Below are positions 2,182 to 16,211 of a stretch of DNA of 16,211 nt, piece by piece (the stretch's first letter is position 1; each line of letters starts with the position of its first letter). Origin of the DNA: Candidatus Methylomirabilis sp. Its GTDB lineage: Bacteria > Methylomirabilota > Methylomirabilia > Methylomirabilales > Methylomirabilaceae. A model generated the notes under the pieces. That model was given only the letters and a program-made list of their open reading frames with translations, had not been told where the DNA came from and ran no database searches. The DNA lies in NCBI GenBank assembly GCA_041498975.1, contig JBGQJI010000050.1:1-16211 (forward strand), written 5' to 3'. Position numbers and translations under genes: made by a program.

Positions 2182-2913
2182 TTAAGGTTGGAGCGAGGGC
2201 CCCGAAGAGGGACGCGTGCCTGCCGACAATGAGCGCCAATGCAGCCTAAAGGAGAGGGCTGTGTAGTAGATCGGATACAACAGGGACCAGCCCACCAGCG
2301 AAGGGGATGGATCCGGAAGTTGCCAGAGGACAATCAGTACCACGATTCCCCACAGGATGCCCAAACCGACCGTGAGGGGACGGAGGGGCCGGGTCCTGCC
2401 CGGATAGACGTACTTGATCGGAACAAAAACCATGATGGCGGCAAACACAATGAAGCCCGCATTGAACCACAGCGGAGTTCTGCCCACATACAGGTAGAAG
2501 GCCAGGATATTCCAGTACGAAGGGAACCCCGTAAAGAAATGATCCGGCGTCTTGGCCGACGCATGGCAGAAGCGGTAGGCGCTGGCGAGGACCGGCAGAC
2601 TCAAGATCCAGAGCGAGGCCGATCCCGGCAGCAGTTGTGCATCGTTGAGGAATACGACGGGCACCACAACATAATTCAGATAATCCATCAAGTCGTCCAG
2701 TTTCGACCCATCGAACGTCGGCAACACCTCTTTGACCCGGACCAGGCGGGCAAGCGGGCCATCCGCGGCGTCGATCAGCACGGCAAGCATCATGCCGAGG
2801 AAGGCCCCCCGATAGTCACCTCTGTGGATGGCGATGAGGCACCAGACCCCCACGACCGCTCCTAGCGCGGTGAGCAGGTGGACAGCCCACGCCAAAACTC
2901 GCCGATCTCTCAG
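2182..2913 (-). CDS. pcs: Phosphatidylcholine synthase-like CDP-alcohol phosphatidyltransferase
   Basis: AWAVHLLTALG, the CDP-alcohol motif DAADGPLAR...FDGSKLDDLMDYLNYV, and DHFFTGFPSYWN are characteristic of Pcs. Start uncertain (CTG 2913 or TTG 2895). Confidence 0.8.
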   Translation of the reverse strand: MRDRRVLAWAVHLLTALGAVVGVWCLIAIHRGDYRGAFLGMMLAVLIDAADGPLARLVRVKEVLPTFDGSKLDDLMDYLNYVVVPVVFLNDAQLLPGSASLWILSLPVLASAYRFCHASAKTPDHFFTGFPSYWNILAFYLYVGRTPLWFNAGFIVFAAIMVFVPIKYVYPGRTRPLRPLTVGLGILWGIVVLIVLWQLPDPSPSLVGWSLLYPIYYTALSFRLHWRSLSAGTRPSSGPSLQP

Positions 2914-2932
2914 CGCCAGGACCCTCCAACCA

Positions 2933-3772
2933 TTAGCGGAGCTTCTGCCAAAACACCCCGGTCCAGTCGATGCGGTGCACCTTCTCGGTGACGTCGTGCG
3001 CGGTGCGGAAATCCTCGATAGCCGCCCGACACCTAGGCAGGGCGTAGTCATCGACAATGACGTACCCACCAACCGAGACCCTGGGATAGAGATACCGGAG
3101 GACGTCCGTGGTCGATTCGTACATATCGCTGTCGAGCCGGAGAATTGCAAGGCGGTCAATCGGGGCGTCCGGCAGGGTGTCCCGAAACCAACCAACAAGA
3201 AAACGGACCTGACTGTCCAGGAGATCATACCGGACGAAATTCTGTTTGACCTCCTCTACCGAAACAGCCAGTTCGGGGAAGGTCCACAGACGATCTCCTT
3301 TGTCGGCGGGGTATCGCTTTGAATCGGGCTTCGGCAGACCTTGAAAGGAGTCGGCCACCCATACTGTCCTATCTGTATCGCCATAGGCTTTCAGCACAGC
3401 CCTCATAAAGATCGTCGCCCCGCCCCGCCATACGCCAGTCTCGATGAGGTCGCCCGGTATCCGCTTGGTGATGACATCCACAACGCAGTGCTGCAGGTTG
3501 TCGAGGCGCTTCATACCGATCATTGTCTCAGCGTCTAATGGCCAGTGACGACCTTCGACACACGCATCGGACGAAACACGCCGAACAAGCTGCAGGTGGA
3601 AGAACGAAAGCAACTCAGTTATCGGCAGAAACAGGGCTCCCAGAACCCCTCGCCTGCCTCGGCCAAACAGCCGGTAGGCATCCCCAAACATTTGGCGAGT
3701 AAGGCATTTCTTGAGGAGGTCGAGGTAGAGCGTCGCGGGATCGCTGGATGCGCAAATAAGGTTTTGGTTCAT
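2933..3772 (-). CDS. TylF/MycF/NovP-family O-methyltransferase
   Basis: AETMIG..RLDNL, PGDLIETGVWRGGA, WVADSFQGLP, GWF.DTLP, LRLD.D.YEST, GGYVIVDDY, IDWTGVFW; GGAGG RBS. Confidence 0.92.
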   Translation of the reverse strand: MNQNLICASSDPATLYLDLLKKCLTRQMFGDAYRLFGRGRRGVLGALFLPITELLSFFHLQLVRRVSSDACVEGRHWPLDAETMIGMKRLDNLQHCVVDVITKRIPGDLIETGVWRGGATIFMRAVLKAYGDTDRTVWVADSFQGLPKPDSKRYPADKGDRLWTFPELAVSVEEVKQNFVRYDLLDSQVRFLVGWFRDTLPDAPIDRLAILRLDSDMYESTTDVLRYLYPRVSVGGYVIVDDYALPRCRAAIEDFRTAHDVTEKVHRIDWTGVFWQKLR

Positions 3773-6022: not shown

Positions 6023-7285
6023 TCAATGCGCATTCCTCGGCGTCACTTCGATCCCGTGAGAGGCCATCGCCTCGTCGAACGATCGAAGGGTCGGTTTGAT
6101 CTGCACCTTCACCTTCAGGTCAGCGGCCACTGCCTCCTGGGTCTTCAGCCCGTTTCCGGTGATGCAGAGCACCAGGCTCTCGTCCTTCGGGATTCGTCCC
6201 TGTTCGATCAGGCGCTTGGCCGCGGCCACCGTGACCCCCCCGGCGGTTTCGGCGAAGATCCCCTCAGTGCTGGCCAGTAACCTCATCCCTTCCACGATCT
6301 CCTCGTCGGAGGCATGCTCGCCGTAACCCCCACTCTCCTTGACGACCTTGTAGGCGTAATATCCGTCTGCCGGGTTCCCGATGGCCAGCGACTTTGCGAT
6401 CGTCTTCGGTTTGACCGGCTTGATGATCTCACTGTTCTCCTTGATGGCGGTCACGATGGGACCGCATCCCTCAGCCTGCGCGACGTGCATCCGCGTGGCA
6501 CAACCGCCGCTCAAGAGACCGAGACGATCGAACTCTTTGAGCCCCTTCGATATCTTCGTGACCAGGGAACCGCCGGCCGCCGGCACAACGATATGCTGCG
6601 GGGCGCGCCACCCGAGTTGCTCTGCGATTTCATAGCCGAAAGTTTTTGACCCCTCAGCATAGTAGGGCCGTATGTTGATGTTGACAAACGCCCAACGGTA
6701 CTTGTCGGCGATCTCGCTACAAAGACGGTTCACCTCATCATAGTTTCCCTCGACGGCCACCAGCTTCGGGTCGTAGATGAGGGTGCCGATAATCTTGCCC
6801 TGCTCCAGGTCGGCGGGGACGAACACAAAGCTTTGAAGCCCGCCCTCGGCGGCATGTGCCGCCACCGAATTGGCGAGGTTGCCCGTGGAGGCGCAGGCCA
6901 CCACTCTGAAGTCGAACTCCAGGGCCTTTGTCACCGCCACCGCCACGACCCGGTCCTTGAACGAAAAGGAGGGGTGGTTGACGGTATCGTTCTTGACGTA
7001 CACCTCCCGCATGCCGAGGGCGCGCGCCAGGTTCCCGGCTTTCACAAGGGGCGTCATCCCACAATGTCTGCCGACGGCGGGCCCACCTTCGATCGGCAGG
7101 AGCGCGCTATACCGCCAGATGCTGGGCGGGCCGGACTCGATCGCCCTCCGGGTCAGCGTGCCGCGAAGCCGATCGTAATCGTAATCGACCTCGAGCGGCC
7201 CGAAGCAGAACTCGCAGACGTGCAGCGGATCCGCCGGGTAAGGCCGGCCGCACTCCCTGCACTTTAAGCCCTTCACCTTCGCCAT
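6023..7285 (-). CDS. thrC: Threonine synthase-family PLP enzyme (possibly a sulfur-carrier-dependent homocysteine synthase)
   Basis: N-terminal CREC...CEFC, HPSFSFKDR (PLP lysine), ASTGNLANS, EGSKT, TIAKSLAIGNPADG, TEGIFAETAGG, ITGNGLK. Start at MAKVKG (7285). Confidence 0.88.
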   Translation of the reverse strand: MAKVKGLKCRECGRPYPADPLHVCEFCFGPLEVDYDYDRLRGTLTRRAIESGPPSIWRYSALLPIEGGPAVGRHCGMTPLVKAGNLARALGMREVYVKNDTVNHPSFSFKDRVVAVAVTKALEFDFRVVACASTGNLANSVAAHAAEGGLQSFVFVPADLEQGKIIGTLIYDPKLVAVEGNYDEVNRLCSEIADKYRWAFVNINIRPYYAEGSKTFGYEIAEQLGWRAPQHIVVPAAGGSLVTKISKGLKEFDRLGLLSGGCATRMHVAQAEGCGPIVTAIKENSEIIKPVKPKTIAKSLAIGNPADGYYAYKVVKESGGYGEHASDEEIVEGMRLLASTEGIFAETAGGVTVAAAKRLIEQGRIPKDESLVLCITGNGLKTQEAVAADLKVKVQIKPTLRSFDEAMASHGIEVTPRNAH

Positions 7286-7286
7286 C

Positions 7287-7523
7287 TCAGCGCCCCTTCC
7301 CTGGAGTTGGCTCCACCCTGATCCCCAAACCATTCAGGTAGGCAACCCCTTTATTCAACTCTTCTTCTTCGCCATCGAGCTCCACCATGAGCTCACCGGC
7401 CTTCTCCGTCACCCGCGCCCGGCGGATATTGGGGATAATCTTGAACTGCCTGGAGAGGCGGTAGATCACGGGTTCCTTGATGAGCGTCTGTGGAAAGATG
7501 AGGGTGACCATCCGTTTCGGCAT
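7287..7523 (-). CDS. Stand-alone NIL-domain protein
   Basis: L.FP..LI.EPVIY.L...F.IIPNIRRA.V....G....EL.G; ATG at 7523 after GGAAAGGGA. Confidence 0.85.
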   Translation of the reverse strand: MPKRMVTLIFPQTLIKEPVIYRLSRQFKIIPNIRRARVTEKAGELMVELDGEEEELNKGVAYLNGLGIRVEPTPGKGR

Positions 7524-7541
7524 CGCGTGATCCCTTTCCCC

Positions 7542-7580
7542 AAAATCAAAAGCCCCTTCTCGCGAAAATGAGAAGGGGCT
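7542..7580 (-). terminator. Intrinsic terminator of the SAM riboswitch expression platform
   Basis: Minus strand: perfect 11-bp stem AGCCCCTTCTC/GAGAAGGGGCT followed by TTTGATTTT. Its 5' arm CCTTCTCAT can alternatively pair with ATGAGAAGG at the 3' end of P1 (antiterminator). Confidence 0.85.
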
Positions 7581-7600
7581 GTCAAATTCGACGGCGTCCT

Positions 7601-7720
7601 TCTCATCTCTCACCCCGCCCTGTCCGGGATGCAGGAGTTGGCACCACTGTCCGCGGGGACATCTTGCGAACCGGTTGCCGTGGCTTCGCAGGGCCAGTCC
7701 CTCAGCCACTCTGGATGAAA
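7601..7720 (-). ncRNA. SAM-I (S-box) riboswitch
   Basis: Minus strand TTTCATCCAGAGTGGCTGAGGGACTGGCCCTGCGAAGCCACGGCAACC...GGTGCCAACTCCTGCA...AGAGATGAGA shows P1, kink-turn P2, GCAACC/GGTGC P3 and the closing GATGAG. Confidence 0.95.
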
Positions 7721-7734
7721 AGGTCAATCTCGGC

Positions 7735-8020: not shown

Positions 8021-8030
8021 TTGGATCACC

Positions 8031-8138
8031 TAGGGTCTAGAGTCTAGCGTATAGGGTTTAGGGTATAGCGTGTAGACCTCAAGGGGGACTGCACAACCTT
8101 TTCGATCATTTATCCTGAACCCTCTACCCTATACCCTC
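8031..8138. repeat. Inverted pair of degenerate heptamer tandem arrays
   Basis: TAGGGTC TAGAGTC TAGCGTA TAGGGTT TAGGGTA TAGCGTG TAGACCT (8031-8079) and the complementary TATCCTG AACCCTC TACCCTA TACCCTC (8111-8138). Confidence 0.8.
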
Positions 8139-8143
8139 TCCAA

Positions 8144-8398
8144 TCACCGGCCCATAAATCTGGGAGGGCGCTTCTCCAGAAAGGCCTGCACTCCCTCTCG
8201 GAAGTCCTCGGTCTCATAACAATGTAGCGGCCTCTCAGCGTCGGTCGCATTGACCGCCGACAGAGCCGGGTCATAACGGCACTGCTCCACCATTGCTTTC
8301 GCCGAAGCAACCGAGAACGGCGCGTTCGCAGCAATGGTCGCGGCTGTCTCGAGGGTTGTCTGGCGGAGCAAAGGGTCCGGGACGACCCCGTTCAGCAG
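8144..8398 (-). pseudogene. 3' fragment of an enoyl-CoA hydratase/crotonase gene, truncated at an oriIS-like end
   Basis: LLNGVVPD...AATIAANAPFSV..AK...TEDFREGVQAFLEKRPPRFMGR*. Homology stops at the GAGGCTAGG repeat boundary. Confidence 0.85.
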
Positions 8399-8468
8399 AG
8401 GCTAGGCAACAGAAACGGCGTTCTCGGACCGGCGGGCACGGGGGGCCAGACCCGAGGCCATGCTACAG
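8398..8468 (-). mobile_element. IS91/ISCR-like family alpha, ori end only (~70 bp)
   Basis: GAGGCTAGGCAACAGAAACGGC(G/A)TTCTCGGACCGGCGGG... is nearly identical to the copies at 9273 and 15775. Confidence 0.75.
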
Positions 8469-8637
8469 AAAGCGCGAGCGGTGTGCCGGGCTTCGGCCGC
8501 AGAGCAAGCACGTCATGAGCACATGGTGGTCCGCCGGCCTGTACGCGGTCACTAGTGCCGTATCACTTAGAGGGTTGAATACTGCCGTCACGATGCTAGA
8601 CGGAATCGCTCTAATTCGCCAGCGCGGCCGTCTTCCT

Positions 8638-8985
8638 CTAAAGTATCAATCGCTTCGTATAGTTCAGATAGATCCAGGGCACACAGAAGTATCTGAAGCC
8701 AAGAACCTTCCCGGCTCCACTCTGATCCTCCCAGCACAAGTAGAAAGCGTTCCACGGGACGAAGGTGGTGTAAGGACCTGCCCAGACGTGGCCGAAATCA
8801 TCCTCGGCGTAATAGACGAAGCAATGTCCTCCAATCGACCCCGACCACACCTTAGCGGTCGATCCCGGTCCTACTTTGTACCAACCCTTCTTGTACCAGC
8901 CTGCGTCGCACCACGAGTACTCAGAGGAATGCCCATAAGCCACCCAGATAGGTGACGGCGTAGCGTTCTCGAAATAGAGGCCCAT
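8638..8985 (-). CDS. DUF1036-like protein
   Basis: F.N.T..PIWVAYG...W..KGWY.V.PG....V..G.....YYAED..G..WAG pattern; AGGTGG RBS. Confidence 0.7.
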   Translation of the reverse strand: MGLYFENATPSPIWVAYGHSSEYSWCDAGWYKKGWYKVGPGSTAKVWSGSIGGHCFVYYAEDDFGHVWAGPYTTFVPWNAFYLCWEDQSGAGKVLGFRYFCVPWIYLNYTKRLIL

Positions 8986-8998
8986 GATCCACCACCTA

Positions 8999-9226
8999 TC
9001 ACTTGCCAGGCTTTATCGGGGGCGGCTTAAGCGGAGGGCGCTCTTCAAGCACCGGCGGCTTACGTGGCCTCTTCTCGATGCCTGCCCTCTCTTCCGAACC
9101 GCCGGCGCGACCCGCCAGAGGAGGCGCCTTGCGATGGACGGTGCGTGCCTCTTCTATCTCCTGGTCATCTTCGTCCGGCAGTTCCTTATCGCCGAGTTCC
9201 CGCGAGAGACGATCTCGCTCAGACAT
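8999..9226 (-). CDS. Small hypothetical protein, acidic N-terminus and Pro/Lys-rich C-terminus (75 aa)
   Basis: Strong RBS GGGAGGTG before ATG 9226; stop lies 13 bp before the DUF1036 start. No recognisable family. Confidence 0.55.
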   Translation of the reverse strand: MSERDRLSRELGDKELPDEDDQEIEEARTVHRKAPPLAGRAGGSEERAGIEKRPRKPPVLEERPPLKPPPIKPGK

Positions 9227-9272
9227 CGCGCACCTCCCTACGTTGCGGCCCTTCGCGCTGGTGAGACTCTCT

Positions 9273-9875
9273 GAGGCTAGGCAACAGAAACGGCATTCTC
9301 GGACCGGCGGGTGGGGGGCCCGACCCGCGGCCATGCTATAGCGCGGATGAACACCCTGTCAAGGCAAAACCCTGGGGACCGAGAGCGGCATGTGGCCGCG
9401 TGGGGTGGTCCCGATGCCGTCGGCCGAAGTGCGACGAGCGGGGGTGCGCGCACTCCTAGACGGAGCGCGGCCAAGCGCTGGGGCCGGGTAGCGCGCGTAG
9501 GCAGGGAGGTCGGCGAAGAGGTCTCCGGTGGCGCTTGGAGGGCGGCGGGAGGGGGAGGGATCGGGACCCTCGGGCGGGAGCCGGAGATGGGCGAGGATCC
9601 GGCGGATCACCCGGGGATCCTCAATGGTCGCGATCAGGCGCATCCGCCCCCCACAGGCGCTCACTTCGGCGAGGAAGTCCAGGGGAGCGAAGACCCGGAA
9701 GTTGGCGTGGTGCCGCGGGTGGACCGCGTCTGACCGATAGATGATCTGGGTTTTGCTCGCCTCTCCGAGCATCCGCTGCGGTGTGATCGGAGGGCGGGTC
9801 ATGTAGCGGGCGACGACCCCCGGAGTGGCGTTCGCGGGGATCGCCCGGCTCACGTGCGTGCCGAATCCCGTATGG
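9273..9875 (-). mobile_element. IS91/ISCR-like family alpha remnant: internally deleted transposase plus 3' region and oriIS-like end
   Basis: HTGFGTHV...ARYMTRPPI...FAPLDFLAEVSA fused directly to CGGRMRLIATIEDPRVIRRILAHLRLP (Y2-transposase mid-region and C-terminal motifs). The stop seen in the 16002 copy (TAA) is TAC here (9499-9497). Minus-strand end: GCCGTTTCTGTTGCCTAGCCTC. Confidence 0.85.
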
Positions 9876-9882
9876 TGTCTCC

Positions 9883-10302
9883 ATGAGCGATGCCAGGGAC
9901 CACCAGATTCTGCCGGCCTGCGGGCTGAGCGGCGGCAGCATCACCAACCCGCCGCTGCATGACCTGCAGCGCCACATCGTGGTCTGCGACGATTCAGCCA
10001 ACTGCCACCTGCAAGCCTGGCGTTTTGATCTCGGCACACGCTCGATGACACCGCTATGGCGGAAGACGCCCTTCGGCTGCGCCAGCCACATGATTCAATA
10101 CCCGGACACCGGCGAGTTCGTCGTCAATGACTACCGCAAGGGTGGCGAGGAAGTCGCGGTGTTGAACATTGAATCCGGCCGGGAGATCGCCCGCGTCCGC
10201 ACCGGCGGCTTCAATCAAGGTGTGGTGTTTCCGAGCGTAGGCTGGAGTGGCGATTTCTATTGGTCCTCGATGGCGCGGCTGGCGCGGGTCTTTGTGCAGT
10301 GA
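9883..10302 (+). pseudogene. Probable 5'-truncated C-terminal fragment of an uncharacterised (beta-propeller-like?) protein
   Basis: Protein-like composition (GGSITNPPL...PLWRK...ASHMI.YPDTGE.VVND...FPSVGW). It abuts the transposase remnant and has no clear RBS. Confidence 0.5.
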
Positions 10303-10413
10303 CATCCCCCGCGCCCTCGGCTGAAACGAGCACGAGGCGCTCCGATCCGTCCGCCGTCCACGGTCCGAGCTCTTTTGACCAGGCCCCACCGGGAGTGAAC
10401 GGCGCGAGATGAG

Positions 10414-11787
10414 CTACTGTTGGCGCTGGCGTGATCTCCGGGTCACGGCTTCGCTAACCGCCAGATAGGTAATCAGCCAAGATACACGGGTAAGATACCG
10501 TGCGTTCGGTATGCTCAAAGCCGCAGGCATTACGGCGCTGACGATGGCGCTGAAAATGGTCCACCCGAAGAAGCTCACGCGTTCGAAGTCACCGTTCCTC
10601 CAGAATCGCACGGTCGCGAGCGCTACGAGAACGACGGCCGCAATGAGTGCGAGGCCATGGACCTGGCAAATCGTTTGGAGTCCCAGGGTGCCCAGGGTTT
10701 GCCGTGACCCCACAAAGGCCGGGTACTCTCGCGCGAAATGGGTTCTCTGCGCATCTGCTACGAGTGGGAACTGGTCGAGCGGATCGAATATTACCGACAG
10801 ATCGATCAAACTCAACTGGCGGATGGCGTTCTGCATCATGGTTTGAAGCGTCCAAAGCGGGTATGCCCGGATCGTCTCCGTCACGATCTGAGCGCCCTCG
10901 CGCCGGTAACCATCGAACCAACCCAATTTCCTGAAGGGAGATTGCTCGCTCCACAGGAACTGGTCCGAATCTCTCGGTAGGGAATCGATGCTGTCGCAAA
11001 TCCTGTAGCGCTTCTCTGCGCAATGGCTCTGCAAATAGGCGACCGCCGGCCCGTCAGTAATCAAGCGCGCCAACAAATGAGCATATCCGGAAGGTGATAG
11101 GCTGAAGGAGCCGTGCATCCATGCATTGTTGGTCACCAGCAGCAATGCGGCGATGAGTGCGGGAGTGAGGATGCGCTGGGGCAGGTATCCTCGGCAGACC
11201 TGCGATGAGCGAAAGAACAACTTCAGAGCCGCCGCATAGACGAACAAGACGGTCACGAGCGGCAGGGCTGAAGAGTGAACAAGCATCGCTGCCCCGCTGA
11301 TGACGGTCAAATAAATGCGCTGGCGCCCGCTCAAAGCGGTTGGCCTAAATACGAGAAAGTACAGCGAGAGAATTAGTAGAGGTGTGAAAATATCGGGGGT
11401 CACGAATCCGGTCATCCACGGGAGAGGAGACAGAAGGGCGAGAACGGTGATGATAACCGTATAGCGAAAGATGTTGATCGACCCAAATACACGGTCGGTT
11501 ACGAAATATAAAAGATGCGAAACCAAGAGCGACTGCCAGAACGCCACCAGCCACAACGAAGAGCCCAGATGCATCGGATATAACAGAAGGGCATAGAACG
11601 GAGGCCGAATCGACGACCGTACGTAATGTACGTACATTTCGGAATCGTAGAACAACAATGGATAGCCATTGTAGAGGCACGCGAGCATCAGGAGGGACGC
11701 TCCGAGCACCACGGCGAGTACTCGTCGCGCCGTACCGTACCGCTCGGACTCCGAGGTTTTTCCGGCTCTCTCTCTCAGCGCCGGCAT
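10414..11787 (-). CDS. Polytopic membrane protein, possibly GT-C-type glycosyltransferase-like
   Basis: Start MPALRE at 11787 (GGGAG RBS, overlaps upstream stop). NGYPLLFYDS..Y, TPDIF, LVHSS, LARLI.DGPA..YL..HC, RYLTRVSWL, and many TM segments. ORF-track start 12474 is an over-extension. Confidence 0.75.
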   Translation of the reverse strand: MPALRERAGKTSESERYGTARRVLAVVLGASLLMLACLYNGYPLLFYDSEMYVHYVRSSIRPPFYALLLYPMHLGSSLWLVAFWQSLLVSHLLYFVTDRVFGSINIFRYTVIITVLALLSPLPWMTGFVTPDIFTPLLILSLYFLVFRPTALSGRQRIYLTVISGAAMLVHSSALPLVTVLFVYAAALKLFFRSSQVCRGYLPQRILTPALIAALLLVTNNAWMHGSFSLSPSGYAHLLARLITDGPAVAYLQSHCAEKRYRICDSIDSLPRDSDQFLWSEQSPFRKLGWFDGYRREGAQIVTETIRAYPLWTLQTMMQNAIRQLSLIDLSVIFDPLDQFPLVADAQRTHFAREYPAFVGSRQTLGTLGLQTICQVHGLALIAAVVLVALATVRFWRNGDFERVSFFGWTIFSAIVSAVMPAALSIPNARYLTRVSWLITYLAVSEAVTRRSRQRQQ

Positions 11788-13511
11788 ACCGATCTCCCGA
11801 GCTTGATTGCAAGCCGATTCTCCGACCCTTGCGCGAAGAAAATGACGAAGTGGGCGATCGCTATGGTGTGGACATATGTCCAGAAGAGCAGGAGCCAGGT
11901 TAATCGACTGGTCGGGTGGTGCCACACGTGGCTGCCCAGGAAGCTTCCGGTGACGAGCAGAACCAGCAACACGGCCATCTGCGGACTCGAGAACTTCTCC
12001 CGCGGTGCGGGCTGAGTGCTGCGTGAGCCCTGGAAGTACATTGGCGACCCATGCATCAGCGCCCTGAGCGCCGCTCGCGGGAGTACAGGCGCGGTGCTCG
12101 CCATTAGCCCCTGTACCATGATCATGTTGCGCAGCGGATAGCCCCGCAAACGCATGTTCACGTATGGAAAGAGCATGACGAACGCATACACGGGGTACAA
12201 GGTGAAGTAGGCGAGCCCCACATCCCATTGAGAAGCGTTCATTTCGAACAACCCAACGACACGGCCCGCGGTGAACAGATCGGCGACGAGCAGCAAGGAC
12301 GGCCATGCCGTCATTATCGTAAGGACCATCGTGTAGAGGCAGAACCCGGACGACCAGAGGTACTCGACGGCAATCCACATGGAGCCGCGGCGCCGATCTC
12401 GCCGGATGGCATCGAGCAGGACCGCGCGAAACAGAGCGCTGTTGCCGGTCGCCCAGCGGACCTGTTGCCGCCAATAGGAAGAAAGGTCGACGGGCGCGAG
12501 TCCCTTAGCGTACACCTCGCGCATGTAGATCGATTTCCACCCCCGACCATGCACCTTGTAGGAAGTGGCCAGGTCCTCGGTCACGTTGCTTTCATCCCAA
12601 CCCCCAACACTCTCGAGCGCGGAGCGACGCATGACGAAGTTGGTGCCATAGCATGGAGCCCTCTCGTAAGCCGACTTCCCGTCGAGCACGCAGTCGTACA
12701 GCAGCATCTGTTGCTGACTCGCGGCCGTCGCCACGAGCGAATCCGACGCATTGGCGCACACCTGCGGAGTTTGCACGAAGGCGATACCCGAGTCCGCTTC
12801 CAAAAGCGGGATGACCGCGCTCAGGAAATCCGGCAAGACGGCCTGATCCGCATCGAGCACGCTCAGGTACTCCGTTTCGAGATCGATCGAGCGCATCGCG
12901 TCATTGAGAGCACCCGCCTTGTTGCCGCGGTTGGGAATGTCGACCACGTCGATCCCATGCCGCGCCGCCAAAGCCCGGGCGCCGGCCTTGAGGTCTGAGT
13001 CGAGGGAGTTCTCGACGAGCAGGACGCGCAGATTGGGGTATGCCAGTTTTGACGCGGAGAAGACGCTCCTCTCGAGGACGGCAGGGGGCTCATCACAGCA
13101 GGGAATCAGCACCGAGACGCGCGGGAACCGGCTGAGCGGCGGGATGTTATCCCGCTTTGTTCGAGAGAGTCCGGCTGTGGAGAAGAAAAGGTAAATCCAC
13201 AAATGGGTTCCGGCGATGGCCTCGCACAGTGTCACGGTTCCGAAGATCGACAGGTTCACGACCAGTTGAAGTGTGAAGTGAGCTTCTCGGGACTCGCGAA
13301 AAAAGTTCCACAGAAAGGAAGCACGCAATACGTGAAGCATGATGAACAATATCGGCATCAGGAAGAGCGCAGCATTGTGAAACGCCTTCAAGGCGCCGGT
13401 TCGTCGTGAGGCTACGAACGTCTCTTCGATCCGGTCCGGAAGTCGGTAGCGACGCGCGACCAGAAACGCCAGGGTGAGTAGGATCAATGAAGGGAAGATG
13501 GAATAGGCCAT
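11775..13511 (-). CDS. Processive GT2 glycosyltransferase, cellulose-synthase-like
   Basis: NKAGALN, DADQ, VQTPQ, GTNFVMRRSALESVGGW, TEDL and QQVRW motifs with flanking TM helices; no C-terminal PilZ domain evident. Confidence 0.9.
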   Translation of the reverse strand: MAYSIFPSLILLTLAFLVARRYRLPDRIEETFVASRRTGALKAFHNAALFLMPILFIMLHVLRASFLWNFFRESREAHFTLQLVVNLSIFGTVTLCEAIAGTHLWIYLFFSTAGLSRTKRDNIPPLSRFPRVSVLIPCCDEPPAVLERSVFSASKLAYPNLRVLLVENSLDSDLKAGARALAARHGIDVVDIPNRGNKAGALNDAMRSIDLETEYLSVLDADQAVLPDFLSAVIPLLEADSGIAFVQTPQVCANASDSLVATAASQQQMLLYDCVLDGKSAYERAPCYGTNFVMRRSALESVGGWDESNVTEDLATSYKVHGRGWKSIYMREVYAKGLAPVDLSSYWRQQVRWATGNSALFRAVLLDAIRRDRRRGSMWIAVEYLWSSGFCLYTMVLTIMTAWPSLLLVADLFTAGRVVGLFEMNASQWDVGLAYFTLYPVYAFVMLFPYVNMRLRGYPLRNMIMVQGLMASTAPVLPRAALRALMHGSPMYFQGSRSTQPAPREKFSSPQMAVLLVLLVTGSFLGSHVWHHPTSRLTWLLLFWTYVHTIAIAHFVIFFAQGSENRLAIKLGRSVCRR

Positions 13512-13532
13512 GAATCGACGCCAAGTCCTGCT

Positions 13533-13992
13533 ACCAGATAGGAAACTGGAAACGGGCCCCAGCCGCGTGCTCGCCTAGACGAGCGGGCGAGCCAGAGCGA
13601 TCGCCGAACCGGGGAGAACCACCAGGGGGAAAACGACCTCGGCGGGGAGGCTACCCCCAGCAGGTGGGGCTGTCAAGCGGAATTCGGCGGGCACCGGAGC
13701 ATGCGAGGGACGGGACCGGACAGCCCGACCCCGCAGCCCCGGCTACCCACGCGTCGGATCGGGGACGGGGAGGTCATCAAAGACCGGTTCGTACGCCCAC
13801 TTACGGGGGTGGTCAGCCGCCAAGCGCGCGGGCAGATCGGGGGGCGCTCGGAGGCTGGGCGCTCCGGCGGGGAGGTCCAAATGGGCGAGGCTTCGTCGCG
13901 AGCGTCTCGACTGAGCTCGACGAAGTCTCAGCCGAGCGGATCTGCCGGACGATCGCCGGGCGTACGATCACGGCAAGGATCTTCATCGCGAC
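13533..13992 (-). mobile_element. IS91/ISCR-like family beta remnant: transposase tail plus 3' region and oriIS-like end
   Basis: MKILAVIVRPAIVRQI [49-bp insertion] LAHLDLPAGAPSLRAPP...WAYEPVFDDLPVPDPTRG* (stop 13745-13743). Minus-strand end CCGTTTCCAGTTTCCTATCTGGT resembles ISCR oriIS (TTT...TTCCTAT). 13533-13693 is repeated at 15613-15774. Confidence 0.82.
13890..13938. repeat. Two nested, oppositely oriented ~25-bp REP-like micro-insertions
   Basis: Inner GTCTCGACTGAGCTCGACGAAGTC (13904-13927, +) sits within outer GCTCGGCTGA|GCTCGCGACGAAGC (-). Removing 13890-13938 restores ...RQI-LAHL... Confidence 0.75.
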
Positions 13993-14030
13993 GGCTCTTG
14001 ATGGCCGATGCAATGGCCGCTACGTCTGTA

Positions 14031-14798
14031 TTACTCAGCAGCGAGTCTCGTATAACGTGCCCGCAGGCTCTCGAATTGACGGTCGGGCATCAGCCGCCAG
14101 TGGTGCAACTGGTAACGCCACACCAGCCAGAGAATCTTCAACCCATACACCACACTTTGGCCAAAACTTGCCGACGACGATTCCGGGAAGTAACGGGTCG
14201 GTACTGCGATCTCGGCGATACGGAACCGGGCAGCAACCACCTGCGCCGTGATTTCTTGATCAAAGATGAAGCCATCGGAATTCATGGCGTAGTTAACCGC
14301 CTCCAAGACTTCACGACGGAACCCACGATAACCGGTGTGGTAGTCGCTCAAGGTGAGTCCGAAGATCATGTTCTCGACCCATGTGAGAAATCGATTCGAG
14401 AAATACTTCCACCACGGCATACCATCCTGTAACGCCGTACCGCGCTTAAGTCGGGATCCAAAGACCACATCGGCCAAACCTTGTTGAATAGGTTCGATAA
14501 TCTGCGGCACCAGCCGCGGGTCGTACTGGTAGTCGGGATGCACCATAACCACGATGTCGGCACCGGCTTTGATCGCTTCGGCGTAACAGGTCTTCTGATT
14601 AGCACCGTAACCGTAGTTGTGGTTGTGGACGAAGACCTCCAACTTCAATTCCTTGGCGATGCGCAAGGTGTCATCCGTCGAGCCGTCATCCACCAGAATC
14701 ACCGTATGGACGGCGTCTTTGGGCAGTTTTTCATAAGTCATGCGCAGTGTCCGCTCTGCGTTGAAGGCCGGCATGACGACGATAACTTTCGGTTTCAT
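14031..14798 (-). CDS. GT2 glycosyltransferase, DPM1/polyprenol-phosphate sugar synthase-like
   Basis: VVMPAFNAE.TL, LVDDGSTD, NYGYGANQKTCY, MVHPDYQYDP, DVVFGSR, LSDYHTGYR, PTRYFPE.SS; GGAGG RBS. Confidence 0.92.
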   Translation of the reverse strand: MKPKVIVVMPAFNAERTLRMTYEKLPKDAVHTVILVDDGSTDDTLRIAKELKLEVFVHNHNYGYGANQKTCYAEAIKAGADIVVMVHPDYQYDPRLVPQIIEPIQQGLADVVFGSRLKRGTALQDGMPWWKYFSNRFLTWVENMIFGLTLSDYHTGYRGFRREVLEAVNYAMNSDGFIFDQEITAQVVAARFRIAEIAVPTRYFPESSSASFGQSVVYGLKILWLVWRYQLHHWRLMPDRQFESLRARYTRLAAE

Positions 14799-15070
14799 CT
14801 CGCCTCCAGTGGCCTAGCAACAGCCACGAATTGATAATTGGCCAACGCCAGCCCCCCTCGGCCCAGCACTAGAACTGCTGAGTGGCTCAAATACGGATTG
14901 CCAGTTTTCGATTGGGGATTGGGTTTCACGCCATTCATACAAAATACTCTCCCGTCTTTCCCCGTCACGCAACTCAATTCTACTACAAAAGTGCCAAAAC
15001 CCTACTGAGACGACTTTCAGCGATTTCTTTTTGTGGCAGCTAACCGGCGGAACCGCTACAATTTGCCAAC

Positions 15071-15612
15071 ATGAAACGGCAACAGTGGACGACATTCTTC
15101 GCGGTGACGATTCTCCTCGCCGTCTTTACCGGGCTGGCTGTAAACGCCCTCATCCGCGAATCCGCCACGTTCGACGAGACGACGCACCACGTCGCCGGGT
15201 ACAGCTACTAACATTACAACAATTACCGGCTGAACCCCGAACATCCTCCCCTGCTCAAACGCTGGGCGGCGCTTCCGTTGCTCACGCAAGCCATCTGGCC
15301 GGTCGCGCGGCAGGGCTTGTCCGATTCCGCCGCCACGCAGTCTTCACAGCAAGCGTGGGCCGAAGCCGTCGCCGACAACGACGCGCAATGGTTCTACTCC
15401 CACAACCTTCTCTACGGCGTCCACGACTTCACGCTGATGCGCCTTGGCGTCAATCACCCGCTCGCCGTCCCGCCCACCGCCAAGATTTCGATTCCCGGCA
15501 AGCTCATGCTCTTCGCCAACCGGCAGCGCCTCTTACCGGAATCGTACGTGTACGGCTTCGCGTTTACCGAGATGAAATCGCTGCAACGCGACAGTTTTCT
15601 GCTGGGCAAAAC
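15071..15612 (+). pseudogene. ArnT/PMT-like (GT-C) glycosyltransferase pseudogene
   Basis: TM helix, then SATFDE..H..AGYSY*...YRLNPEHPPLLK.WAALPL. In-frame TAA at 15209-15211, apparent jump to the later motif LLPESYVYG...FLLG, and truncation at the beta ori end. Confidence 0.8.
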
Positions 15613-15774
15613 ACCGGAGAGGAAACTGGAAACGGGGCCCCGCCGCGTGCTCGCCACGTCGAGCGGGCGAGCCAGAGCGATCGCCGAGCCGGGGAGAACC
15701 ACCAGGGGGAAAACGAACTCGGCGGGAAGGTTACCCGCGGCGGCGGGGGCCCGTCAAGCGGAATTCGGCGGGCA
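15613..15774 (-). mobile_element. IS91/ISCR-like family beta, second ori-end copy, interrupted by an alpha element
   Basis: Closely matches 13533-13693, then switches abruptly to GAGGCTAGG (alpha end) at 15775. Confidence 0.8.
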
Positions 15775-16162
15775 GAGGCTAGGCAACAGAAACGGCATTC
15801 TCGGACCGGCGGGCACGGGGGGCCCGACCCGAGGCCCAGGCTGCAGCGCGGATGAACACCCTGTCAAGGCAAAACGCTGGGGACCGAGAGGGGCATGTGG
15901 CCGCGTGGGGTGGTCCCGACGCCGTCGGCCGACGTGCGACGAGCGGGGGTGCGGGCGCTCCTAGACGGAGCGCGGCCAAGCGCTGGGGCCGGGTAGCGCG
16001 CTTAGGCAGGGATGTCGGCGAAGAGGTCTCCGATGGCGCCCGGAGGGGGCCGGGAGGGGTGGGGATCGGGACCCTCGGGCGGGAGCCGGAGATGTGCGAG
16101 GATTTTGCGGATGACCTGGGGGTCCTCGATCGTCGCGATCAGGTGCATGCGCCCCCCACAGG
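15775..16162 (-). mobile_element. IS91/ISCR-like family alpha remnant: transposase tail plus oriIS-like end
   Basis: Aligns with 9273-9657. Encodes CGGRMHLIATIEDPQVIRKILAHLRLPPEGPDP...DLFADIPA* (16160-16002). Confidence 0.85.
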
Positions 16163-16185
16163 TCTAGGGTATTCTACCCTCTGCT

Positions 16186-16211
16186 CTATCGTCCTCTAAA
16201 TCTTGGAGGGC
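16186..16211 (-). CDS. Extreme 3' end of a probable enoyl-CoA hydratase gene (rest outside window)
   Basis: Reads (R)PPRFRGR*, matching RPPRFMGR* at 8144-8170 (19/26 nt identical by hand alignment). Very short. Confidence 0.55.

Follow-up and report, generated by a model that had tools for sequence, protein, structure and literature searches.

How did five rolling-circle transposon ends of two kinds come to lie in a single orientation among the genes of a chromosomal-looking stretch of DNA? The question is raised by a 16,211-nt stretch from Candidatus Methylomirabilis sp. (contig JBGQJI010000050.1; the whole of this stretch is called the window here), in which short sequences resembling the oriIS ends of IS91/ISCR elements alternate with other genes. 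The original prediction saw in it an integron-like array without an integrase, formed as units of captured cargo, transposase tail and ori end were added one after another by one-ended transposition. Two issues are central to that idea: (i) what the ends are; and (ii) whether the DNA between them travelled with them. On balance we think it probable that the window holds a decayed patch of ori-end fragments, all non-autonomous and derived from two IS91/ISCR lineages, which lies in an ordinary chromosomal stretch and was later reshaped by deletion or recombination.

Five co-oriented ori ends of two lineages

We refer to the two kinds of end as alpha and beta. Both termini were counted in the window, with up to three mismatches allowed for alpha and 200 shuffled sequences examined for each; the alpha probe was a 20-mer taken from the window itself. 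The alpha terminus occurs in three exact copies (0 mismatches) at 8400, 9275 and 15777, and the window contains no further copy at three mismatches or fewer, while the beta terminus occurs twice, at 13537 and 15617. All five matches are on the plus strand, and neither terminus was matched in the shuffled sequences (0/200 in both cases). Repeat finding and alignments place the ends themselves at 8398, 9273 and 15775 (alpha copies a1, a2 and a3) and at 13533 and 15613 (beta copies b1 and b2), which agrees with the positions and the common direction originally predicted. For all five copies the minus strand is the transposase sense strand and the right (ori) end is intact.

Within the window the copies are 74-97% identical to one another. 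The closest pair is a1 and a3, which are alike at 63 of 65 positions (97%); a1 and a2 are 74% identical when aligned without gaps, and a2 and a3 are about 89% identical along a 300-nt ungapped repeat (D1), their similarity ending at the same nucleotide in both. If orientations were random, five of five in the same direction would be expected about 1 time in 16. Co-orientation could also be the product of a strand bias in single-strand integration, an idea that is our own.

The sequences behind the ends point to the family. The minus-strand translation of 9359-9880 found 33 longer proteins among 1777 candidates, and Y2_Tnp is present in all 33, together with Zn_Tnp_IS91 in 20 of them, so that the proposed IS91/ISCR origin is borne out; P0001 (beta-type) and P0016 (alpha-type) were confirmed by Pfam. 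The C-terminal motif of the same translation matches NCBIfam ISCR_clade_Ia (E 4e-6), and alpha has in common with ISCR elements the C-terminal motif CGG-x-M-[KR]-[LV]-I-A-x-I-E-D-P. Against the transposases of ISCR2 and other IS91-family elements on plasmids, P0016 shows 43-44% identity along 92-95% of its length (about 94% of the length for ISCR2), and the best plasmid match of P0001 has 38% identity. These comparisons support the assignment of the ends and tails to the IS91/ISCR family as remnants, alpha being ISCR2-like and beta a distant IS91-family lineage.

When the 33 proteins were compared with the window by tblastn, the strong matches were to fragments only, all on the minus strand: beta-type amino acids (aa) 255-328 at 9656-9874, 88% identical to P0001 along 74 aa; the last ~52 aa of the alpha type, at 9500-9655 and again at 16005-16160, 73-81% identical to P0016 and P0020; and beta-type aa 404-467 at 13746-13986, in two frames (frameshifted). 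The proteins matched at 88% (beta) and at 73-81% (alpha) have both Zn_Tnp_IS91 and Y2_Tnp. Also on the minus strand, some of the 33 proteins give weaker alignments of lower identity, which span 9273-10105 and 15775-16163. On the plus strand, three weak matches (E 0.001-0.008) look like chance and were set aside. Transposase aa 1-254 matched nowhere in the window with any of the 33 proteins; no copy therefore has the transposase or terIS side and all five are defective, as had been expected from the apparent lack of an intact transposase.

In this family the transposase gene has terIS on its upstream side and oriIS on its downstream side (PMC13393415). For comparison, the ori boundary of ISCR2 was set empirically from two copies in different plasmids, which are identical up to ...CGTTTATTCTTCCTATACGT and divergent beyond it, about 230 nt past the stop codon. 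Read in the transposase orientation, the alpha end is ...CGTTTCTGTTGCCTAGCC, after which its three copies read TCTG, TCAG and TCTG, and the beta end is ...CGTTTCCAGTTTCCTMTC, followed by TGGT and CGGT in its two copies. The pattern CGTTT-N6/7-CCTA is common to the alpha and beta ends, and in beta it takes the form CGTTT...CCTAT, as in ISCR2; in a hand alignment, alpha and ISCR2 match at 13 of 21 terminal positions. The alpha and beta ends lie ~225 and ~210 nt, respectively, past the canonical stop. Terminal pattern and spacing therefore fit oriIS ends. No inverted ends or duplicated flanks around a2, a3 or b1 were found in repeat scans or in the flanks inspected.

The 4 nt beyond each end (three alpha and two beta copies) could represent a target preference or a part of the element; the targets adjoining oriIS that are quoted in one account of the family are tetranucleotides such as CTTG and GTTC (PMC13181058). 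In the window these 4 nt follow the family of their own ori and not the family of the block that comes after it, which fits a choice of target by each element and fits less well the stacking of foreign units on a resident ori.

Several other observations concern the two lineages. The ori region of a2 contains a promoter-like site at 9362-9333 on the minus strand (TTGACA, 18-nt spacer, TAGCAT; 10/12), facing outward through the terminus toward a small open reading frame (ORF) and a DUF1036-like gene. It recalls the outward promoters described for the ISCR1 oriIS region (PMC6218425); promoter-like sites number 5 against 2.3 expected, the -10 is not kept in a3 and the -35 is missing from a1. At ~13900-13940 (minus strand) the tail of b1 has a C-terminal frameshift in common with the 462-aa protein P0007 (...IRQIRSAE...) and, relative to P0007, an extra palindromic insert of ~24 nt that reads TSSSSVET. 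The closest plasmid relative of the beta-type transposase (38%, hit H16) is found at 14 places in one 290-kb plasmid, NZ_CP058410.1 of Trichlorobacter lovleyi, which is a possible natural system for studying the multi-copy behaviour of the beta lineage. At the DNA level the plasmid collection contained no match to the alpha or beta units. The alpha 20-mer was also sought in species-representative genomes, a set that does not include the source genome; the one locus found, a 21-nt match in a coding region of an Acidobacteriaceae metagenome-assembled genome with no transposase nearby, was dismissed as chance.

A 389-nt alpha unit and an alpha/beta chimera

The "tail" at 9359-9880 turned out on alignment to be a chimera, in which a beta-type segment ending ...DFLAEVSA is joined in frame to an alpha segment starting CGGRMRLIATIEDP. 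The junction (9661/9662) is the same point at which a3 loses similarity to a2 (16162/16163), and alpha is therefore a discrete unit of 389 nt. It is present twice, with both boundaries common to a2 and a3 and with different flanks, and in the transposase orientation it starts with CCTG. Because one tail is chimeric, nested insertion must have occurred, and not stacking only. The same chimera is found in P0043, a 118-aa ORF on another contig, where the beta part is identical to that in the window and the alpha part differs at a few residues.

These features support the conclusion that the 389-nt alpha unit behaves as a discrete non-autonomous fragment that would need a transposase in trans. The predicted non-autonomous units mobilized in trans thus survive in part: the alpha unit is discrete and every copy is defective, but nothing found indicates that cargo travelled with the ends.

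The protein collection was also examined for short ORFs with an alpha tail, of which 43, out of 64 candidates, were sorted by hand. Two of the 43 (P0054 and P0069, on other contigs) have unrelated protein sequence ahead of the distal alpha region, joined to it at other break points, and alpha end-stubs beside cut genes therefore occur elsewhere. The fused parts in these two are the N-terminal end of a 3-hydroxyacyl-CoA dehydrogenase (57 aa; Pfam 3HCDH_N E 2e-6) and ~100 aa of an unassigned protein, each running into the ori region of distal alpha. Two more, P0059 and P0061, were weighed as possible independent cases of the 389-nt boundary in other contexts and rejected as ambiguous, since they are possibly frameshifted normal genes.

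Neighbouring genes and their truncation

The sharp cuts that had been noted in neighbouring sequences, in a hydratase gene at 8397, an ArnT-like gene at 15612 and b2 at 15774, were all confirmed (Table 1). A fourth had been missed: the ORF at 9883-10302 lacks its N-terminal part at the inner boundary of the beta fragment, so that this boundary, too, adjoins a cut gene. A single non-significant Pfam match (NADH-G_4Fe-4S_3, E 0.085, below cut-off) was obtained for this ORF, and its full-length relatives are without a Pfam family. The flanks of a1, a2 and a3 were checked for continuation of the cut gene, and simple insertion was rejected for all three; to the right of a1 the hydratase gene is not continued, and to the left of a2 the beta transposase gene is not continued. 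A hydratase gene end flanks the remnants on each side, and the two point the same way. The second of these (16188-16211, minus strand) reads PPRFRGR*, compared with PPRFMGR* at 8147, with ~75% DNA identity over 24 nt.

Table 1. Remnants of the alpha and beta elements and genes adjoining them, in window coordinates
Feature	Position	Strand	Remarks
Enoyl-CoA hydratase gene, C-terminal third, 84 aa	8147..8397	-	Pfam ECH_1 E 2.3e-8, positions 170-250 of 251; cut at 8397 by a1 terminus
a1, alpha oriIS-end stub, ~71-81 nt	8398 to ~8468-8478	-	Inner boundary between 8468 and 8478
Block between a1 and a2	8469..9272	-	170 nt non-coding and two ORFs
DUF1036-like gene	8638-8985	-	Pfam DUF1036 E 3.2e-5
Small low-complexity ORF, doubtful	8999-9232	-	No family match
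a2, alpha unit, 389 nt	9273..9661	-	oriIS end, ~225 nt of 3' non-coding sequence and last ~52 codons of ISCR2-like transposase
Beta-type IS91-family transposase fragment, aa 255-328	9662..9882	-	In-frame fusion to a2; 88% to P0001; chimera also in P0043
C-terminal third of a ~420-460-aa protein family	9883..10302	+	P0211 (423 aa) matched at 287-419; P0213 (424 aa) at 287-423
457-aa multi-pass membrane protein, apparently full length	10414..11787	-	Nearest clusters 441-463 aa, one with PMT on 15% of members
578-aa processive family 2 glycosyltransferase (GT2), cellulose-synthase/PgaC-like	11775..13511	-	Pfam Glyco_tranf_2_3 E 2.7e-26; NCBIfam CelA domain E 2.6e-38
b1, beta oriIS-end fragment, ~490 nt	13533..~14022	-	Frameshifted last ~64 codons of beta transposase; inner boundary bracketed 14016-14030
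255-aa polyprenyl-phosphate GT2 (AglJ/PpgS/ArnC-like)	14031..14798	-	Pfam Glycos_transf_2 E 4.9e-22; NCBIfam matches
ArnT/PMT_2-family (GT39-like) gene, first 180 codons	15071..15612	+	In-frame TAA 15209-15211; cut at 15612 by b2 terminus
b2, beta oriIS-end stub, 162 nt	15613..15774	-	88% identical to b1; cut at 15774 by a3 terminus
a3, second alpha-unit copy, 388 nt	15775..16162	-	Inner boundary as in a2, flanks different
Short palindromic spacer and last 8 codons of second enoyl-CoA-hydratase-like gene, running off the window	16163..16211	-	Translation; 3'-end alignment with first hydratase gene

The cargo had been described as unrelated, and this is correct only in part, because four of the cargo genes are all concerned with glycan synthesis: the GT2 synthase, the GT-C-like membrane protein, the polyprenyl-phosphate GT2 and the ArnT-like gene. 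The membrane protein of 457 aa is possibly a GT-C-type glycosyltransferase, to judge from a weak lead to PMT-type enzymes, and the piece at 15071-15612 corresponds to the N-terminal quarter of PMT_2/ArnT proteins of ~580-730 aa (460 matches among 1498 candidates). Searches of Pfam and NCBIfam gave nothing for the membrane protein, the beta tail ORF or the ORF at 8999-9232 (searched in NCBIfam as 8999-9334).

The 457-aa gene starts before the 578-aa GT2 gene has reached its stop, so that the two overlap. The fragment b1 has the stop of the 255-aa GT2 gene (14031) on one side and, after 21 nt, the start of the 578-aa GT2 gene (13511) on the other, so that once b1 is removed the two co-directional GT2 genes are separated by a spacer of ~36 nt. 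Without b1, the two GT2 genes and the overlapping 457-aa gene would make up a compact group, with the divergent ArnT-like gene opposite. A foreign origin for the cargo was assessed by GC content and by GC content at third codon positions (GC3) and rejected; neither differs from the flank, GC3 being 0.64-0.80 in the cargo genes and 0.68-0.79 in the left-flank genes with a family assignment. Judged by the predicted products, the cargo is mostly a coherent cell-envelope glycan gene set, and no feature sets it apart as foreign or cassette-like. The blocks between the ends hold 0, 0, 2, 2 and 3-4 genes or fragments, on both strands, with three gene fragments and one nonsense codon, and this does not match the integron-like array of cassettes that had been proposed.

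Some further features of the window can be mentioned. Downstream of the cut hydratase gene, 8030-8140 forms a structure like repetitive extragenic palindromes, in which two arms of TAGGGT(A/T)TAGGGTA-type repeats (27 nt, 78% complementary) lie 45 nt apart, and the same AGGGTA/TACCCT motif is present in a short palindrome at 16163-16187, between the end of the second hydratase gene and the inner boundary of a3. An S-adenosylmethionine (SAM) riboswitch on the minus strand at 7600-7721 (Rfam RF00162, 84.6 bits, E 3.7e-19) lies upstream of a NIL-domain ORF and a PALP enzyme gene (6023-7333). Together with these two genes, the second of them pyridoxal-phosphate-dependent, the riboswitch probably constitutes a SAM-controlled sulfur/methionine operon, and the ORF listed at 7287-7727 probably has its true start downstream of the riboswitch. 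At 2182-3772 (minus strand) an ORF resembling CDP-alcohol phosphatidyltransferases (2182-3228) overlaps a TylF-type O-methyltransferase ORF (2933-3772) by ~296 nt, and the downstream gene of the pair probably starts later than listed.

Origin of the locus

We suggest that fragments of the two lineages inserted into a chromosomal stretch that carried a glycan gene set and fatty-acid genes, and into one another. Each would have kept the oriIS end, where rolling-circle transposition starts, and would have been without terIS and most of the transposase gene. Such fragments most likely arose as prematurely terminated ("miniature") products, moved in trans by a full-length element located elsewhere; the 389-nt alpha unit would be the clearest case, and b1 (~490 nt) and the beta fragment that begins at aa 255 can be read as further products of this kind inserted here. 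The alpha units would have arrived after beta, because a3 cuts b2 and a2 adjoins beta coding sequence. A simple insertion is suggested by the appearance of b1 alone. The flanks of a1, a2 and a3 do not continue each other, and later deletion, recombination or a transposition that carried upstream DNA must therefore be invoked; we infer premature termination, mobilization in trans, this order of events and a role for recombination between co-oriented copies, to which later deletions and possibly some one-ended transposition carrying neighbouring DNA may have contributed in giving the present order.

The closest precedent is the IS801 study. There, right-end fragments of 229, 360 and 679 nt account for 26% of IS801 insertions, each fragment starts at a tetranucleotide resembling that of the normal left end, a 229-nt fragment interrupts another IS91-family element, and most of the genomic fragments are attributed by the authors to reorganization and not to one-ended transposition (PMC3189936). 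For IS91, it is stated that 82 bp of the ori end with the adjacent tetranucleotide suffice and that mini-elements move with the transposase supplied in trans (PMC13181058).

Several observations weigh against this explanation. Palindromic stretches are present at the ends, yet the predicted hairpins are no stabler than those of shuffled sequence (z -1.28 to +1.64), and the Pfam match of the window fragment alone to Y2_Tnp is weak and not significant (E 0.3). Most of the short alpha-tail ORFs (31/43) run upstream into normal transposase sequence, a further 7/43 start too late to tell, and the 389-nt boundary is seen in only 1/43, namely P0043, with the same chimera and the same context; these counts do not show the 389-nt unit to be common beyond the locus. 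The flanks of a2 and a3 are not contiguous, so that neither is a simple insertion. Neither a full-length alpha or beta element nor a terIS is available at the DNA level, and a comparison with the left end of the kind made for IS801 is accordingly not strictly applicable. Finally, five of five ends in one orientation, each adjoining the next block, are also expected of head-to-tail stacking.

Stacking of this kind, in which units of cargo, transposase tail and ori were moved in trans by one-ended rolling-circle transposition and laid head to tail into an integrase-free, integron-like array, is a possible but in our view unlikely origin of the locus. It accounts directly for the five co-oriented ends and their adjoining blocks, and also for the three blocks that begin with a truncated gene, as would be expected if replication from an ori entered neighbouring DNA and stopped at a chance site. 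In the family, one-ended transposition is put at 1-14% in IS91 and IS1294 (PMC13181058), IS91-type elements are reported to form gene cassettes and multi-gene circles (PMC5737581), and the stub of the alpha ori, at ~71-81 nt, comes near the 82 bp that are enough for IS91. Every unit, however, would have had to lose terIS and most of its transposase gene beforehand; two units (15613-15774 and 15775-16162) have no cargo; and what cargo there is equals the flank in composition, has no common promoter and is not uniform in gene orientation. The four glycan genes, moreover, belong to two adjacent "units" and form one pathway set, which fits the splitting of an operon by b1. The copies differ by ~11% and so do not reflect recent serial activity, and the 4 nt beyond each ori go with the family to which the ori belongs, rather than with that of the unit that follows. 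Insertion followed by recombination or deletion fits the arrangement at least as well, and we consider it the likelier course. It is more doubtful still that the short ori ends of the two lineages serve as portable start sites, reused in trans to copy neighbouring chromosomal segments head to tail beside an existing ori end.

Two other histories appear improbable. The alpha and beta repeats could have joined contigs of different loci or strains during assembly, in which case the non-matching flanks would be chimeric joins. The nearest proteins all come from metagenomes, which makes a metagenomic origin of the sequence likely, and the least sensible joins, at the flanks of a2 and a3, fall exactly at repeat boundaries; against this, window copies that are only 74-97% identical are too unlike to be collapsed into one another, the beta|alpha junction occurs independently in P0043, and the cuts at 8397, 15612 and 15774 are at the very terminus of an element, as they are in real insertions. 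Just as improbable is the entry of a circle, containing ~8469-15774 and a short alpha ori stub, into a resident 389-nt alpha copy by homologous recombination, which would put alpha sequence on either side of the insert and is reportedly the route proposed for ISCR1 complex integrons. The much closer resemblance of a1 to a3 (63/65) than to a2 (74% without gaps) would be explained in this way, as would the bracketing of the whole set by alpha sequence and by two same-orientation hydratase gene ends, but only ~70 nt of homology would have been available, and the two hydratase genes agree at their 3' ends by only ~75% in the 24 coding nt that can be compared before the window stops at 16211.

Several known systems are close to the locus. 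In Pseudomonas syringae pv. phaseolicola, the miniature right-end fragments of IS801 are similar in having an intact ori end, a variable length of transposase 3' sequence and no left end, and, in the sections of the study relied on here, they are described as moved in trans, clustered near genes, in one case inside another IS91-family element, and in many cases attributable to reorganization (PMC3189936). The locus differs from them in its two unnamed lineages, its host, an uncultured bacterium of ~60% GC, and its five copies within 7.8 kb in one orientation, all known from sequence alone. Truncated copies beside cargo genes, as seen here, are described as common for ISCR2 (PMC7758954); unlike the ISCR cases, the present locus has no resistance genes, its context is environmental and chromosomal-looking, and identity to named ISCRs is far lower. 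In the sdpA cluster of sphingomonad catabolic plasmids, cargo genes are interspersed with several IS91-type elements, which belong to two subtypes with a terminal region in common, and that structure is explained by a mixture of one-ended transposition, circles and repeat-mediated duplication (PMC5737581). Those elements are described there as full length, with circles detected experimentally, whereas only remnants are present here. Integron arrays are similar in having one recombination-type site per block, all in one orientation; here, however, integrase, attC and a common promoter are lacking, and the chemistry would be that of HUH rolling-circle transposition and not of tyrosine recombination.

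We therefore regard the locus as a known kind of transposon scar, the less likely reading being that of a new integron-like system of gene capture. It carries a caution, in that co-oriented ori ends beside truncated neighbours mimic a capture array while insertion and subsequent recombination explain them equally well. If mobility of whole units were nevertheless true, it would matter for how gene clusters are assembled by rolling-circle elements outside the setting of resistance genes, and if the ends were portable start sites, the locus would represent an integrase-free, rolling-circle counterpart of the integron that assembles multi-gene blocks in an uncultured bacterium. For the family itself, the window brings two IS91/ISCR-type lineages, both undescribed and both from uncultured high-GC bacteria. 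It probably also shows, in a natural setting, a miniature ori-end derivative inserted in another member of the family, which would extend a behaviour shown experimentally only for IS801.

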